64,000 nt of DNA, taken from an uncultured Chlamydiae bacterium (GTDB lineage: Bacteria > Chlamydiota > Chlamydiia > Chlamydiales > Parachlamydiaceae). A model generated the notes under the pieces. That model saw only the letters and a list, made by a program, of their open reading frames with translations. It was not told the origin of the DNA and ran no database searches. The translations under genes and the position numbers were made by a program. Shown piece by piece: positions 50,934-64,000 of this stretch. How positions within the stretch are numbered: position 1 is the first letter of the stretch; every line of letters begins with the position of its first letter. Location of the stretch: NCBI GenBank assembly GCA_963754655.1, contig CAVWGN010000001.1, forward strand, positions 96,001 through 160,000, written 5' to 3'.

Positions 50934-51635
50934 TTAGAGCTTAGCTTTAGACAAAGGGATGGCATTGAACATCATTTCAGCATACTCAAATGCCACGTAA
51001 GCCTCTTGAACAAGTTGGTTTTGAACTTGCTTATTGATTGCTAAACTATTTAATTTCTCTTTATAGAGCTCTTTAAAAGCATGCGTATTAGGTCTCCCCG
51101 ATGCTTTAAAGAGCTCAGAAAAATCATACAAATGAACAGCATCCGGCCATTTTTTTTCAATATATCTTTTAAGAATCATTCCACCAGACAAATCTCCCAA
51201 ATAACGCACATAAGCATGTGCGACGAGCAATAGGGGATAACTCCTTCCCAATTGACGGAGATGTTCAGCATAACGCAAAGCAGCTGCTGATGTTCGCCTC
51301 GGAAAATGCTTAAAAGAATCAGAATTTAAGTCTTCTTCAAGAGCTTGTTGCCGATTTAATGCAGGATAATTGATTTTTTTTAACTCTGGACAAATCTTGA
51401 GATTAAGTTGTATTTCCTCTTCCAGAACTGTATAAATCAATGTTAAATCTACTAAATACTGGTGGTAGCTTCTCCTTTCCAATGTCCCTTTTAGTAAATT
51501 TTTCATAAAAGAATGATTTTCAACGTGTGCATGAATGTCTTTGGTTCCTTCATACAAGGCTGTTGACAGCGCAGGAAGAGAGGGAGCAGATGCACCTGTG
51601 AAAGAGTTATCTAAGAAGATGTAAAATGAATTCAT
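50934..51635 (-). CDS. Heme oxygenase (biliverdin-producing, HO-1/HmuO-like)
   Basis: Proximal His in 'EGTKDIHAHVEN'; signature 'LLVAHAYVRYLGDLSGG'. Confidence 0.9.
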   Translation of the reverse strand: MNSFYIFLDNSFTGASAPSLPALSTALYEGTKDIHAHVENHSFMKNLLKGTLERRSYHQYLVDLTLIYTVLEEEIQLNLKICPELKKINYPALNRQQALEEDLNSDSFKHFPRRTSAAALRYAEHLRQLGRSYPLLLVAHAYVRYLGDLSGGMILKRYIEKKWPDAVHLYDFSELFKASGRPNTHAFKELYKEKLNSLAINKQVQNQLVQEAYVAFEYAEMMFNAIPLSKAKL

Positions 51636-51737
51636 AAATATTCTCCAAATTAGTAGTAGTCAGATTGAAGGTTGATTTTTTTTCTCGATTTTATGCACTA
51701 ACGAATAGGAAATGGTCGAAAATCTCGCTTAAACTCG

Positions 51738-52058
51738 CTAACGTAAGGATTGAGTTTCAGGTTCCTCTTGTTCTTCCAGGAGGTGATTATTTTGCAATAG
51801 CATATTTTGATTCTCAATGGGAAAAGTGGTATTTGCAGCAATTTGTAGCTCATGCCAATAGCCGCGATCAAACCATCCTAGGCTTCCATTCCAAAAGAAA
51901 CAAAGAGTCACAATTCCCCATATAGGCCAAAAAAGATAGGTAAGTTTTAAAAATTTGGGTACCTTGGCATCAAAGGTTGCAATACCTGGATCTCCATAAA
52001 GCTCTATTTCCCCTTCAAAATGGGGATCCTCTACTTTATCTTTTCCTTCGTGAGGCAT
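51738..52058 (-). CDS. Heme-less protein resembling the CcoP/FixP N-terminal anchor
   Basis: 'DPGIATFDAKVPKFLKLTYLFWPIWGI' resembles the CcoP motif DGIxEYDNPLPRWW..FxxTIxW; no CxxCH. Confidence 0.55.
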   Translation of the reverse strand: MPHEGKDKVEDPHFEGEIELYGDPGIATFDAKVPKFLKLTYLFWPIWGIVTLCFFWNGSLGWFDRGYWHELQIAANTTFPIENQNMLLQNNHLLEEQEEPETQSLR

Positions 52059-52249
52059 GAACGCTCTCCTTGTTTGACTTCATCTTCTTGCATCATTTGA
52101 AATTTAGGTTCTTCATCCATATCTAAACGCTTTTTCTTCCATAAATACAAAAATATAAGGAAGGCACTCCCCACAAGGGAAATGACTAAACCATAGTGAA
52201 AAAAGTTGCCATATACCCCTATTCCATCGATGACTGCACAAATCGTCAT
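52031..52249 (-). CDS. Small single-TM cbb3-associated protein (CcoQ/CcoS-like)
   Basis: One TM then 'LWKKKRLDMDEEPKFQMM'; ATGA overlap with ccoO; occupies the usual ccoQ position. Confidence 0.55.
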   Translation of the reverse strand: MTICAVIDGIGVYGNFFHYGLVISLVGSAFLIFLYLWKKKRLDMDEEPKFQMMQEDEVKQGERSCLTKEKIK

Positions 52250-53556
52250 GGCAATTTCCTTTGCCCTTCAATAATTTCCTTAGTTTTAATCGGATCTTTT
52301 CCTAGCCACCATGCTTGAGTAGGAGGCGTAATGCGCGTTCCCTTAGTCATCATATACTGATAAATGGCTTCGAAGCGATAATTCGGAATTCCAATTGAAC
52401 TTTTGCCCGTTCCTCGTGGATCATGATCAAAAAAATGTTGGAAAGCAGGCATGATAGATCCTGCACTTGCTGTTTTTGGAGCCCAAAAGTGAGATTGATG
52501 CCAATCTCGGCTAGGTCTTTTGACTCCTACACGTGATAAATCGGGTCCAATGCGCCGAGTGCCTGGAAAAGTAATTTTTTGGTAGATGAACTCATTAGCC
52601 GAAGAAGGAGGAGCTGGGTATGAATCAGAACCGTTAAGCACCACATCTTGAATCAACGTGCGCGTTTGATCGGTATGACAATACCAGCATCCTTCAATGG
52701 CATAAATTTTTTCACCCAAATAAATAAGTTCTTGGCGTGAGTAAAACCCCAGCATAGGACTTGTCAATTCAGCCAAACCCTTCATAGGCCTTCCTTGAGG
52801 GTCATAACGCCAACGTTCTTGATCTCCATAATGAATCGGAATGATGCGAAATTCGCGCGGATTTTGCACATACACCACACCATATTCTTGATGATAAGGT
52901 TGTTTGACAGCGTCATCTAAAATCTTAAAATTCTCATCCACCCAATTTTGTAAAATTCCACCTGAAGGATCCAGGGAAAAAGCTTCTTGGACTTGAGGAT
53001 CATAGAGCTCTAAAATTTGATACTGAACTTTTGACGTTTCTTCTTCTTTTGATGCTTGGCTATGCTGCTCTTTCCCATTGTGTTGCAAATTTTTTTGCAA
53101 TTTTTCAGCGTGTGTGCGCATCTCGCTTTCTGGCTCGCGCAACATGAGCAAACGCGAAGTCAATTTAAGTTCAGGCTCTTGATAACGAGTAATGTATTTT
53201 TCCAATTCTTGTGGAGCAACCAAGCGCAAATTTTCAGATTCTTTAAAAGTGAGTAAGGTAAAATCTTGCTTGAGATGATGCACATATTGCAGTTCGTGAC
53301 CTCCTGTCGAGGCGCTGCTCATGTAATAATTGGGATCTTCAACTTCATACATCTGGACTTGATAAGGGCTAGATGGGCTCGTCCAAGTGGAGTCAATAAA
53401 ACGAGGAGCAACCAACACGGCCATGACCGACATTGAAAAAAGAAGAATGATGCCTCCGATCATCAGGATGGCAGAGCGATCTAACTTATGGACAAAGTGG
53501 GTATGCGGCTTTAGCTTTTCTTCTTGTGCTTTTTTTTCCTCTCTAGAATCTGTCAT
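52246..53556 (-). CDS. ccoO: cbb3-type cytochrome c oxidase subunit II with a large insertion
   Basis: 'GEKIYAIEGCWYCHTDQTR', 'GTRRIGPDLSRVG', 'WHQSHFWAP...GSIMPAF'. Confidence 0.85.
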   Translation of the reverse strand: MTDSREEKKAQEEKLKPHTHFVHKLDRSAILMIGGIILLFSMSVMAVLVAPRFIDSTWTSPSSPYQVQMYEVEDPNYYMSSASTGGHELQYVHHLKQDFTLLTFKESENLRLVAPQELEKYITRYQEPELKLTSRLLMLREPESEMRTHAEKLQKNLQHNGKEQHSQASKEEETSKVQYQILELYDPQVQEAFSLDPSGGILQNWVDENFKILDDAVKQPYHQEYGVVYVQNPREFRIIPIHYGDQERWRYDPQGRPMKGLAELTSPMLGFYSRQELIYLGEKIYAIEGCWYCHTDQTRTLIQDVVLNGSDSYPAPPSSANEFIYQKITFPGTRRIGPDLSRVGVKRPSRDWHQSHFWAPKTASAGSIMPAFQHFFDHDPRGTGKSSIGIPNYRFEAIYQYMMTKGTRITPPTQAWWLGKDPIKTKEIIEGQRKLP

Positions 53557-62895: not shown

Positions 62896-62907
62896 TTTTC
62901 ATCTCTT

Positions 62908-63048
62908 TCAACTATCAGGGTTTTCTTCTCGAAATAACTGGTATTTAACAGCTTCATCATCTTCAAATTGTCCTTTGCGCCAATAGTAAACGTAAAGTCC
63001 AAGACCGCCTAAAGCTGCTGCTATCGAACCGATAATCATCCAAAACAT
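62908..63048 (-). CDS. ccoS: cbb3 oxidase maturation protein CcoS/FixS-like, 46 aa (not in the ORF track)
   Basis: SD 'aaggag'; MFWMIIGSIAAALGGLGLYVYYWRKGQFEDDEAVKYQLFREENPDS* has a TM segment plus the GQF(D/E)D motif. Confidence 0.75.
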   Translation of the reverse strand: MFWMIIGSIAAALGGLGLYVYYWRKGQFEDDEAVKYQLFREENPDS

Positions 63049-63214
63049 CTATACTACTCCTTCACTTTACTTTTGGCACCTTGGATAATTCTCTGAAACC
63101 TCCTTCGATTAAACGATTGCTAGTGGATCACTATTAAACAATATGGAACACTTACAATCATTTTATCCCCGGGCTTTCAATCAGTCCAATAGGCAAAAAC
63201 TAATGTAAACGTTA

Positions 63215-64000
63215 CTAACCTATCCAACGAAACGAATAATTCATAACATCCATGGTCACTGCCTGAGTGGGACATTTTTCAGCACAAAGCCCACAGCGAA
63301 TGCAAACATCTTCATCTTTAAGCATGGCTGTTCCCATCTCAGCTAAATCTTCATCATCCATACTTGATGAATTGACCCCATAAAAATTATCAACAGCGCG
63401 GCGTAATTCTCCATCTCCTAAATCAAGATTCAGCTTGCTGATGGGAATTTGCTTTAGGCAATTACATGGACAAACATCTACACAACCATTGCATTTGATG
63501 CATAAAGTGCCATCGAAAACCGGAGAAACATGGCATTGAAGACAGCGGTGAGCTTGATTGTGTGCCTCTTCGGCCGTATAATTATTTTCCACCATGTTTT
63601 CATTTTTCACTCTGATTTGAGGAGGCTGCATGGTGGGCAACGCCCATTTGGTGCGCAGATAGGTTTTATCACGCATGGGAGGAATTTCAGTAAATTCTCC
63701 TACAAATTCTTGATAGGGTTTTGTTCCACGCAAATCGCTGTCAATGGAACGAGCAGCTTCTTGACCATGCCGAATGCCAGTAATGAACAAAGCAGGCCCA
63801 AAAGCAGCATCACCTCCTGCATACACTCCTTTAACGGAGGTACGTCCCGACTCACGTTCTGTTTTGATGATGCCTCGATCAATTTTGAGTTGATCTTTTT
63901 GATCCCAGCCATCAAAAATGCTGAGATCCATCGCTTGTCCAATGGCTAAGGCAATGGTATCGCAAGGAATGACATATTGACTATCAGGAATATATTTAGG
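63215..64000 (-). CDS. C-terminal part of a FAD/NAD(P) oxidoreductase (GltD/NfnB/DsrL-like) with a 2x[4Fe-4S] ferredoxin domain; runs off the window
   Basis: Frame open to 64000 ('IPCDTIALAIGQ'); 'TSVKGVYAGGD', 'AHRCLQC', 'CIKCNGCVDVCP', 'CIRCGLCAEKCP'. Confidence 0.85.
   Translation of the reverse strand, partial: PKYIPDSQYVIPCDTIALAIGQAMDLSIFDGWDQKDQLKIDRGIIKTERESGRTSVKGVYAGGDAAFGPALFITGIRHGQEAARSIDSDLRGTKPYQEFVGEFTEIPPMRDKTYLRTKWALPTMQPPQIRVKNENMVENNYTAEEAHNQAHRCLQCHVSPVFDGTLCIKCNGCVDVCPCNCLKQIPISKLNLDLGDGELRRAVDNFYGVNSSSMDDEDLAEMGTAMLKDEDVCIRCGLCAEKCPTQAVTMDVMNYSFRWIG

Follow-up and report, generated by a model that had tools for sequence, protein, structure and literature searches.

We have analysed a stretch of 64,000 nucleotides from the genome of an uncultured chlamydial bacterium of the Parachlamydiaceae (G000:C1:96001-160000, hereafter the window), in which respiratory genes run co-directionally on the minus strand from position 50934 to the window end. 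The genome comprises 3.16 Mb in two contigs, with a GC content of 0.39 and a completeness of 96.7%. The cluster, as we read it, probably provides one of several branches in a respiratory chain based on menaquinone. It would be built of separable modules with a heptahaem cytochrome c placed between them. Module A would consist of a b6-type Rieske/cytochrome b complex together with a cytoplasmic flavoprotein of the NfnB/GltD type that binds NAD(P) and carries FAD and four [4Fe-4S] clusters, and module B would be a cbb3 oxidase core formed by CcoN, an enlarged CcoO, a CcoQ/CcoS-like peptide and a CcoP cut down to its membrane anchor. The heptahaem protein would replace cytochrome c1/f as well as both haem domains of CcoP. 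A hard-wired chain from the bc complex through the heptahaem cytochrome to cbb3 is well supported by the sequences and their arrangement, and an obligate supercomplex is not supported by them.

Results

The heptahaem cytochrome and the cbb3 core

The gene for the membrane-anchored heptahaem cytochrome (56751..61022) encodes 1423 amino acids with exactly seven CxxCH motifs and one hydrophobic segment, the N-terminal helix at residues 8-26. Three of the motifs (at 80, 203 and 279) lie in a trihaem, c7-like part and four (at 495, 611, 845 and 1081) in class-I domains, with haem-free coiled coil making up an insert at about 300-470 and a tail at about 1160-1423, some 430 residues together. Pfam matches are to Cytochrom_C, Cytochrome_CBB3 and, at 765-812, FixO. 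The fifth haem domain contains a CcoO-like GPxLxxxG...MP stretch (FixO positions 101-148) and the seventh is CcoP-like, positions 195-277 of TIGR00782 aligning to residues 1062-1152. Seven CxxCH are present in 18 of 20 orthologues, and among 19 sequences the seven motifs are invariant together with H183, H196, H220, M540, M798, M897 and M1134, with one invariant Met in each of the four class-I domains. The trihaem part of the orthologues and of the compact relatives described below matches models of the Cytochrome_C7, c3 and MtrC types, and its three invariant extra His suggest low-potential bis-His haems. A sequence search of the PDB with the whole protein gave one weak match (6h5l_B, E 3e-7, residues 1070-1163), and a model of residues 1-300 reached a mean predicted local distance difference test (pLDDT) of 63.5, falling below 50 near the haem motifs.

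The catalytic subunit of the C-family (cbb3) haem-copper oxidase, CcoN, is encoded at 53553..54986 (Pfam COX1, 273 bits). In the alignment with 3mk7_A (E 2e-60) the His of RPxH, YxHN, YxWxGxHH and GHxH and the Tyr are identical, and the protein thus keeps the His ligands of haem b, haem b3 and CuB as well as the cross-link Tyr. The gene overlaps by 4 nt that of CcoO (52246..53556, 436 amino acids), in which a helix at 30-48 is followed by an insertion of about 215 residues (approximately 51-265) and then by a monohaem domain with CWYCH at 290 and GSIMPAF. FixO matches this domain with 77.9 bits at residues 279-379 (cut-off 29.6), and when CcoO is compared with 8smr_F and 3mk7_B only residues 265-379 align, CWYCH and SIMPAF included. 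Across 19 CcoO sequences both motifs are invariant and the insertion is conserved. The insertion is modelled confidently as a mixed alpha/beta fold, with pLDDT mostly 80-97 and good values for residues 75-280; a Foldseek comparison of the whole-protein model with the PDB returned nothing below E 0.4, a wide structure search aligned only the N-terminal helix (Z at most 4.6), and no solved chain was matched by the sequence of the insertion.

Two small membrane-protein genes complete the core. The first, overlapping ccoO by 4 nt, encodes a single-helix peptide of 72 amino acids (52031..52249) in the ccoQ position; one of 22 orthologues matches FixQ (E 0.0024), and the family also resembles the CcoS-like peptide, a ccoS query matching the same position in L052, L062 and L063. 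The second, overlapping the first by 28 nt, encodes 106 amino acids (51738..52058) and is a haem-less CcoP anchor, homologous to FixP_N: PF14715 matches 5 of 23 orthologues with a best E of 1.8e-5, the window copy giving no match. It contains neither CxxCH nor a haem domain, and the idea that it is a full CcoP was rejected because the haem motif is absent. At one related locus a partial tandem duplication lies downstream of the cluster (L080:12094-13111); it repeats a fragment of ccoN and the 3' terminus of ccoO and holds the 72- and 106-residue open reading frames (ORFs) a second time.

The Rieske/cytochrome b module and its flavoprotein

The cytochrome b gene (61040..62416) ends 17 nt before the heptahaem gene and encodes a cytochrome b6 fused to subunit IV (Pfam Cytochrome_B 128 bits, Cytochrom_B_N_2 118 bits). 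Translation probably begins with the ATG at 62365, which yields 441 residues, and orthologues are 76-96% identical across residues 1-441 of this form. The NCBIfam models ExtP (residues 61-267) and ExtQ (residues 321-451, E 3e-18) match it, both under their cut-offs. There are six hydrophobic segments, and two His pairs, spaced by 14 and 15 residues in two helices, provide the four haem-ligand His in what we take to be a b6-like spacing. The Qo motif is APWY, a variant of the PEWY type. FYTLGLG (TLGL) stands at what is presumably the place of the b6-type CxGG motif for haem cn, in place of CxGG. The expected position of that motif also follows the description in PMC5600118.

The Rieske gene (62317..62895; Pfam Rieske 35.9 bits) overlaps that of cytochrome b. 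The protein has a twin-arginine-like N-terminus (RRSFL), one membrane helix and both cluster-binding boxes, CTHLGC and CPCHGSTY, the latter placing it in the Ser/Tyr class, for which potentials of 300-350 mV are given (PMC3509893). Its matches to the NCBIfam Rieske models of b6f and bc1 all lie under the cut-offs. The top solved match is 9rk3 (Kuenenia Kustd1480, E 2e-15), tied with the b6f Rieske protein 8hn2 and followed by 9rk4; both 9rk3 and 9rk4 are Rieske proteins of Kuenenia (PMC12954380). The parallel with anammox flavoprotein complexes that the sequence-only reading of this DNA had drawn is a sound one. Upstream of the Rieske gene a CcoS/FixS-like single-helix peptide of 46 amino acids is encoded (62908..63048); its match to TIGR00847 (E 1e-4, 21.8 bits) is under the cut-off of 28.35, and tblastn recovers the peptide at the same position in 18 of 20 related loci.

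The flavoprotein gene enters the window with its 3' part (63215..64000, 261 codons) and extends 1059 bases beyond it; the whole gene (G000:C1:159215-161059) encodes 614 amino acids. Methyltransferase and transaldolase genes lie upstream, so the flavoprotein gene is the start of the cluster. The protein is cytoplasmic, with no hydrophobic segment, and the full sequence contains the Pfam domains Fer4_20 and Pyr_redox_2 and a C-terminal Fer4 dicluster (2x[4Fe-4S]); it is predicted to bind NAD(P) and to hold four [4Fe-4S] sites. The best PDB sequence matches (9bov, 8oh5_C, 9n5u NfnA, 4ylf_B and 5jca_L, E 3e-80 to 1e-56) show that its best solved relatives are NfnB-type proteins and related subunits of bifurcating complexes. 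The gene is kept, first in order, in 19 of 20 related loci; L060 and L062-L064, which have neither Rieske nor cytochrome b, lack it too.

Other cytochromes, maturation and oxidases of the genome

No match to cytochrome c1 (PF02167) was found across the 96.7%-complete genome, and the best whole-genome score for CcoP (TIGR00782), 24.3 bits against a cut-off of 179.95, lies within the heptahaem gene itself. Six-frame searches of the genome with PF13442 and PF00034 returned only the heptahaem gene and a homologue of TsdA. CxxCH occurs in 47 of the 6397 ORFs of at least 60 amino acids; among the 30 of these scanned with Pfam the cytochromes are the heptahaem protein, CcoO and TsdA only, the remaining 17 being covered by the six-frame searches alone. 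The absence of cytochrome c1 and of a haem-bearing CcoP, noted by the sequence-only reading for the window, thus extends to the whole genome. Its further remark that the window has no soluble cytochrome c is right and does not extend to the genome, since the periplasmic TsdA is encoded elsewhere; of the two partners for CcoNO that it had named as troublesome for its proposal, a ccoP was not found, and the existence of a periplasmic cytochrome c goes part of the way towards the other. Cytochrome c maturation genes, which it had left to be looked for, belong to System II: a CcsA-like protein of 625 amino acids (77 bits) and a ResB-like protein of 798 (42.8 bits), both above the Pfam cut-offs.

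The TsdA homologue (C1:1675319-1676170, plus strand; L003:931-1782) is a periplasmic dihaem protein of 283 amino acids with a signal-like N-terminus, of the thiosulfate dehydrogenase/tetrathionate reductase type. It matches Allochromatium TsdA (4wqc_A, E 3e-44) over residues 64-282 and the Pfam family SoxA-TsdA_cyt-c with 42.8 bits, and the Cys of RIxxCFxRS, presumably a haem ligand, aligns. A Cys ligand at this place agrees with PMC4423706. The possibility that this protein serves as the CcoP was rejected on account of its strong TsdA homology. Because TsdA enzymes are bidirectional (PMC6879331, PMC5146829), TsdA could be an alternative sink for the bc-heptahaem chain.

MenB was found in the genome (460 bits), and MqnA/D were not. 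Two further COX1 genes of the A type (C1:572767-574110 and C1:2505991-2507340, in open frames of 665 and 685 amino acids) and a gene for cytochrome bd subunit I (C1:2323262-2324557) are also encoded, so that the cbb3 branch is one of about four terminal oxidases. As no other cytochrome c is present, the two A-type enzymes are presumably quinol oxidases.

Distribution and losses among chlamydiae

In an even sample of the class (250 genomes, 251 for cytochrome b) the heptahaem gene is present in 58 genomes and in 44 of 143 genera, with none among the 29 genomes of family f4 (1.0-1.2 Mb). CcoN occurs in 61 genomes and cytochrome b orthologues in 56, and the three sets are nested, cytochrome b within heptahaem within CcoN. 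Two further distant cytochrome b matches were set aside as non-orthologous. One of them, a weak match of 27% identity with six in-frame TGA (G192:C58:14658-15155, family f4), resembles mitochondrial DNA of the host caught up in the assembly more than a gene of the chlamydia itself.

The synteny on which the sequence-only reading had counted is found. Flavoprotein, Rieske, cytochrome b, heptahaem, ccoN and ccoO genes keep an identical order and strand in 19 of 20 related loci from many families, the exception being L060 (G156), which has ccoS-heptahaem-ccoN-ccoO without flavoprotein, Rieske or cytochrome b. In a second set of 57 loci, taken from 80 of 347 relatives and chlamydial wherever a taxon is named, ccoN lies directly downstream of the heptahaem gene in 45, and 8 more loci end within 1.5 kb. 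One locus, L094 (G254), carries cytochrome b-heptahaem-ccoN-ccoO-peptides with no Rieske, ccoS or flavoprotein gene within 7.5 kb upstream.

Five of the 61 CcoN genomes have no cytochrome b, and three of these (G055, G095 and G216; loci L062, L063 and L064) have no heptahaem gene either, keeping an intact ccoS-ccoN-ccoO-ccoQ-like-ccoP' series, where ccoP' is the anchor gene. G055 consists of one contig, and G095 belongs to the same genus as the window. Beside ccoS, G055 retains decayed remnants of the flavoprotein gene (41-52% identity) and of the Rieske gene (47-54%), while its ccoN is 84% identical to that of the window. Compared with the congener G235, ccoN of G055 has a non-synonymous divergence (dN) of 0.081 with saturated synonymous sites, no more than is seen among genomes with the full set; with the synonymous divergence (dS) saturated, dN/dS ratios were not used as rates, and only the low dN was contrasted with the saturated proportion of synonymous differences (pS). 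The other two genomes without cytochrome b, G109 and G156 of family f10, keep both heptahaem and CcoN.

TsdA was found in 34 of the 250 genomes, every one among the 61 that bear CcoN, and it is present in all four checked genomes without cytochrome b; in G055, G095 and G216 the TsdA orthologue is the single PF13442 match. This nesting, together with the presence in genomes that have lost the bc complex, hints that the cbb3 branch of chlamydiae is connected with thiosulfate/tetrathionate. The nested gene sets argue for a linear dependency, in which module A would need the heptahaem protein and the oxidase as its sink, the heptahaem protein would need the oxidase, and the oxidase can apparently draw on other donors, among which TsdA alone was seen as a candidate.

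A possible contact between the heptahaem cytochrome and CcoNO

In order to look at the junction of the two parts, we predicted the structure of three chains together, namely CcoN, residues 255-436 of CcoO and, as partner, residues 830-1165 of the heptahaem protein. The score obtained with this fragment was 0.60 (runs 0.60, 0.56 and 0.61), the best of three controls reaching 0.03. The partner had a pLDDT of 67 or more, and no less than 55% of contacts agreed between the runs. Among solved complexes 116 of 157 reach the mark used, as do 2 of 215 mismatched pairs, and scores of 0.60 or less were those of 18 of the 157 solved complexes and of both passing mismatches. The model thus weakly supports a contact of heptahaem residues 830-1165 with CcoNO, and the pass may reflect mere likeness because CcoNOP complexes have already been solved.

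Compact operons outside the chlamydiae

A genome search widened to the phylum gave no families beyond those already sampled, and a search for homologous proteins was filled by chlamydial sequences. A search of 1.84 billion protein representatives with a compact relative of 747 amino acids as query returned distant proteins of 545-690 residues; the seven that were examined have 572-618 residues and seven CxxCH each. A scan of metagenomes with an alignment of compact heptahaem proteins then gave 38 loci (L131-L168) of GC 0.56-0.70. The heptahaem gene has ccoN after it in 37 of them and cytochrome b before it in 33, and a FAD/FeS gene comes after ccoO in 27, the shortfalls being mostly at contig ends. 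One of these loci, L131, in which the domains were confirmed, starts with an Rrf2 regulator (5560-6072) and continues with Rieske (159 amino acids), cytochrome b (421), heptahaem (591), CcoN (466), CcoO (189, with no insertion), peptides of 45 and 96 amino acids and the flavoprotein (645). The flavoprotein gene is followed, at L131:14154-16760, by a transposase ORF of the IS200 kind and by genes for a DsbD_2 protein and a protein resembling FixG (CcoG). By hhalign the 72-residue chlamydial family matches the 45-residue ORF of L131 with 87.9% probability and the 106-residue family matches the 96-residue ORF after ccoO with 92.7%.

The compact operons resemble the chlamydial cluster in their gene set, seven CxxCH, FixO-like and c7-like domains, homologous peptides and lack of a haem-bearing CcoP. 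They differ in size, the heptahaem protein having about 570-620 residues against 1423 and CcoO 189 against 436, and in the place of the flavoprotein gene, which follows ccoO in the compact operons and stands first in the chlamydial cluster. By these lengths the chlamydial form is an inflated variant, its heptahaem protein about 2.4 times and its CcoO about 2.3 times longer. Since the compact operon is found in 38 high-GC metagenome loci, the design is not specific to chlamydiae; as to the organisms concerned, look-alike clusters in an atlas name Planctomycetota, Acidobacteriota and Elusimicrobiota, which we take as leads only.

Neighbouring genes

Every gene named by the sequence-only reading is present and on one strand, as judged by Pfam, NCBIfam and reading of the ORFs; what that list overlooked is an ORF of 438 amino acids between the heptahaem gene and ccoN (55250..56566). 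It encodes a highly charged coiled coil with no hydrophobic segment and matches no Pfam family; neither a paralogue elsewhere in the genome nor a homologue among loci L001-L130 was found. It is missing from all 20 related loci, including L059 of the same genus, and it was rejected as a subunit of the complex, being an orphan outside the conserved cluster. Here the ORF may divide the operon into two separately transcribed units. Promoter-like sites in 50000-64000 (30 found, 34.5 expected) are uninformative, and of the 24 terminator-like sites (12.4 expected) none is convincingly placed.

A haem oxygenase gene (50934..51635; Pfam Heme_oxygenase 146.9 bits) follows the anchor gene. It adjoins the cluster in 2 of the 20 loci (L058 and L059) and in 1 of the 57 (L071), and was rejected as a core member, being a neighbour only in close relatives. 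Downstream of it, 48000-50900 holds short ORFs without family and is low in GC (0.32 in 48001-50000), with a fragment of a DDE transposase at 49328-49759 (PF01609, E 8e-6); this region bordering the cluster looks like an insertion-sequence remnant.

Discussion

In the mechanism that we propose, electrons from menaquinol would pass to the Rieske cluster, through the heptahaem protein (by way of its trihaem part and the four His/Met domains) to the haem of CcoO, and from there over haem b to haem b3/CuB and O2, with a stable contact perhaps formed between the heptahaem protein and CcoNO. The flavoprotein would most likely pass electrons between NAD(P)(H) and the haem b side of low potential, in line with the proposal for the anammox complexes; it may either take up the low-potential Qo electron and form NAD(P)H, or feed electrons from NAD(P)H into the b haems. 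The cbb3 core would also work where module A and the heptahaem protein are missing, TsdA then being the only other c-type partner. The heptahaem protein is the sole candidate for a carrier within the cluster, it contains CcoO-like and CcoP-like domains, and its place between cytochrome b and ccoN is conserved. These features support the idea of a giant cytochrome wiring Rieske/cytochrome b to cbb3, put forward from the sequence alone.

Several observations weigh against this proposal. The scores of CcoN for TIGR00780 (277 bits, equivalog cut-off 583) and of CcoO for TIGR00781 (67 bits, cut-off 200.65) are under the cut-offs, and the predicted interface is weak and covers a fragment of the heptahaem protein. 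A low-potential bis-His trihaem part, as the extra His suggest, is an odd first acceptor for a Rieske protein of the 300-350 mV class (PMC3509893). Four of the 57 loci have 3.8-9 kb of DNA without ccoN after the heptahaem gene, and in three of these four genomes (G251-G253) ccoN is on another contig. G109 has heptahaem and CcoN, neither cytochrome b nor TsdA was found there with the queries used, and the electron donor is unexplained. Finally, the foreign 438-residue ORF, flanked by gaps of 184 and 263 nt, parts the heptahaem gene from ccoN in the genome studied here, which makes co-transcription of the two halves uncertain.

Four rival explanations were weighed. As first read, the cluster encodes one obligate complex III-IV supercomplex, with cbb3 fed only through the heptahaem protein from Rieske/cytochrome b; a single conserved gene cluster without CcoP or c1 fits such an arrangement, the contact prediction lends it weak support, and in family f3, where 11 of 16 genomes have heptahaem and CcoN and none of the 16 has TsdA, no other c-type donor was found. 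We consider the obligate form quite unlikely, because G055, G095 and G216 keep an intact cbb3 core without cytochrome b or heptahaem, and in G055 ccoN shows the low dN described above beside decayed flavoprotein and Rieske genes; moreover both genomes of f10 do without cytochrome b, the modules lie on separate contigs in G251-G253, and the window genome itself encodes TsdA. The accompanying suggestion of a fit to a microoxic host is conjectural, and the genome has two A-type haem-copper oxidases and cytochrome bd besides. The same f10 genomes, of which G156 has ccoS-heptahaem-ccoN-ccoO, together with the position of the heptahaem set inside the CcoN set, would suit a heptahaem protein that is the oxidase's own entry subunit, a CcoP substitute open to any periplasmic donor, with Rieske/cytochrome b as a separate complex making no stable contact. 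Its CcoP-like and CcoO-like domains agree with such a role, as does, weakly, the predicted contact with CcoNO. This is an appreciable but minor possibility: the heptahaem gene comes right after cytochrome b wherever both exist, it was lost along with module A in three of the five genomes without cytochrome b, and there is no other equivalent of cytochrome c1/f for the Rieske protein. That the halves are functionally unrelated and mere neighbours is highly improbable. They are separable in some genomes and a foreign ORF lies between them in the window, but the gene order found in chlamydiae, at a GC of about 0.39, recurs in contigs with GC 0.56-0.70, all 56 genomes with cytochrome b also carry CcoN, and their cytochrome c gaps are complementary, one half being without c1 and the other without the haems of CcoP.

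A further alternative concerns the function of module A: its main activity might be that of an electron-bifurcating menaquinol:NAD(P)+ reductase, in place of quinone recycling at a Qi site. In its favour, the flavoprotein belongs with the NfnB/GltD proteins and is kept and lost with Rieske/cytochrome b, the Rieske protein has its nearest relatives in the Kuenenia complexes, for which such a mechanism was put forward, and menaquinone, as indicated by MenB, is paired with a Ser/Tyr Rieske box; a low-potential quinone with a high-potential Rieske protein has been argued to let haem bP reduce NAD(P)+ (PMC12954380). Against it, the anammox proposal is itself unproven, and the chlamydial cytochrome b is fused and has no CxGG haem-cn site, which is present in the anammox models. 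We regard bifurcation as the main function as rather unlikely, and we find equally doubtful the detailed course in which one electron, passing through Rieske, heptahaem and cbb3 to O2, pulls the second along the b haems and FeS chain as far as FAD. There is likewise only a small chance that flavoprotein, Rieske/cytochrome b, heptahaem and cbb3 form a single O2-pulled electron-bifurcating machine making NAD(P)H from menaquinol; if they did, this would be the aerobic counterpart of a disputed anammox mechanism, in an intracellular bacterium drawing reducing power directly from its quinol pool.

With the branched chain of separable modules as our preferred reading, the cluster can be set beside known systems. 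The actinobacterial bcc-aa3 supercomplex shows a comparable obligate-type wiring, in which a dihaem c subunit of complex III replaces a soluble cytochrome c; it differs in that its oxidase is of the A type (aa3), that two haems stand where the chlamydial cytochrome has seven, and that a flavoprotein is absent. The canonical CcoNOQP of Pseudomonas stutzeri (3mk7/5djq) shares the CcoN ligand motifs, a monohaem CcoO, the order ccoN-ccoO-peptide-ccoP and a CcoS-like peptide, whereas the chlamydial CcoP is a FixP_N anchor alone (a dihaem CcoP is not a feature of every cbb3 oxidase), CcoO has the 215-residue insertion, and TIGR00780 and TIGR00781 are far under their cut-offs. In the bc1-cbb3 (CIII2CIV) assemblies of Pseudomonas aeruginosa and Rhodobacter capsulatus, of which natural and engineered supercomplexes have been solved (PMC10556555, PMC7876108), Rieske/cytochrome b is likewise connected to cbb3 through bound c-type cytochromes, and CcoN and CcoO of 8smr and 6xkw are sequence relatives of the window proteins. 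Those systems have a canonical bc1 with c1, a dihaem CcoP and separate cytochromes c4, c5 or cy encoded elsewhere; here one fused heptahaem protein would replace c1 and the haem domains of CcoP, and all genes are in one cluster.

The closest parallels to module A are the NAD(P)-oxidoreductase Rieske/cytochrome b complexes of Kuenenia stuttgartiensis (Kustd1480-1485 and Kuste4569-4574), which share a b6-type cytochrome b and subunit IV, a multihaem c in place of cytochrome f/c1 and an NAD(P)-binding FeS flavoprotein in the operon (PMC12954380, PMC5600118). Subfamily-G cytochromes b are described as co-occurring with NAD(P)-binding FeS proteins (PMC5600118), and the cytochromes b of Parachlamydia and Waddlia group with Kuenenia 1 and 2 in a tree of 2012 (PMC3509893). 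In contrast to the anammox complexes, cytochrome b and subunit IV are fused here, TLGL stands for CxGG, and the seven-haem cytochrome has CcoO-like and CcoP-like domains; the chlamydial operon runs into a cbb3 O2 reductase, where the anammox partner is HAO-like or nitrite-reducing, and the organism is an aerobic intracellular bacterium.

That non-Chlamydiaceae chlamydiae have cbb3 and a bc complex is already published: CcoNO has been inferred for the chlamydial ancestor, and most lineages other than the Chlamydiaceae have been assigned a bc complex, PetBD (PMC9816063). We found no description in the open literature of the fused heptahaem protein with CcoO-like and CcoP-like modules, of the haem-less CcoP anchor, of the enlarged CcoO, of a single operon joining all of these to the flavoprotein or of the nesting of TsdA, although subscription papers or supplements may mention them.

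The cluster would represent a natural design in which a single fused protein with seven haems links complex III to cbb3 and only the anchor is left of CcoP. It would also place an NAD(P)-linked Rieske/cytochrome b complex, discussed so far mainly for anammox bacteria, in aerobic bacteria with O2 as a defined acceptor, and because some members of the group grow in amoebae the role of the flavoprotein becomes more testable. The nested losses offer natural knock-outs, with cbb3 alone, cbb3 with the heptahaem protein, and the full set. The picture of chlamydial respiration would thus be corrected at the level of subunits, where pangenome work, in the accessible part of its text, records only 'CcoNO' and 'PetBD' (PMC9816063).

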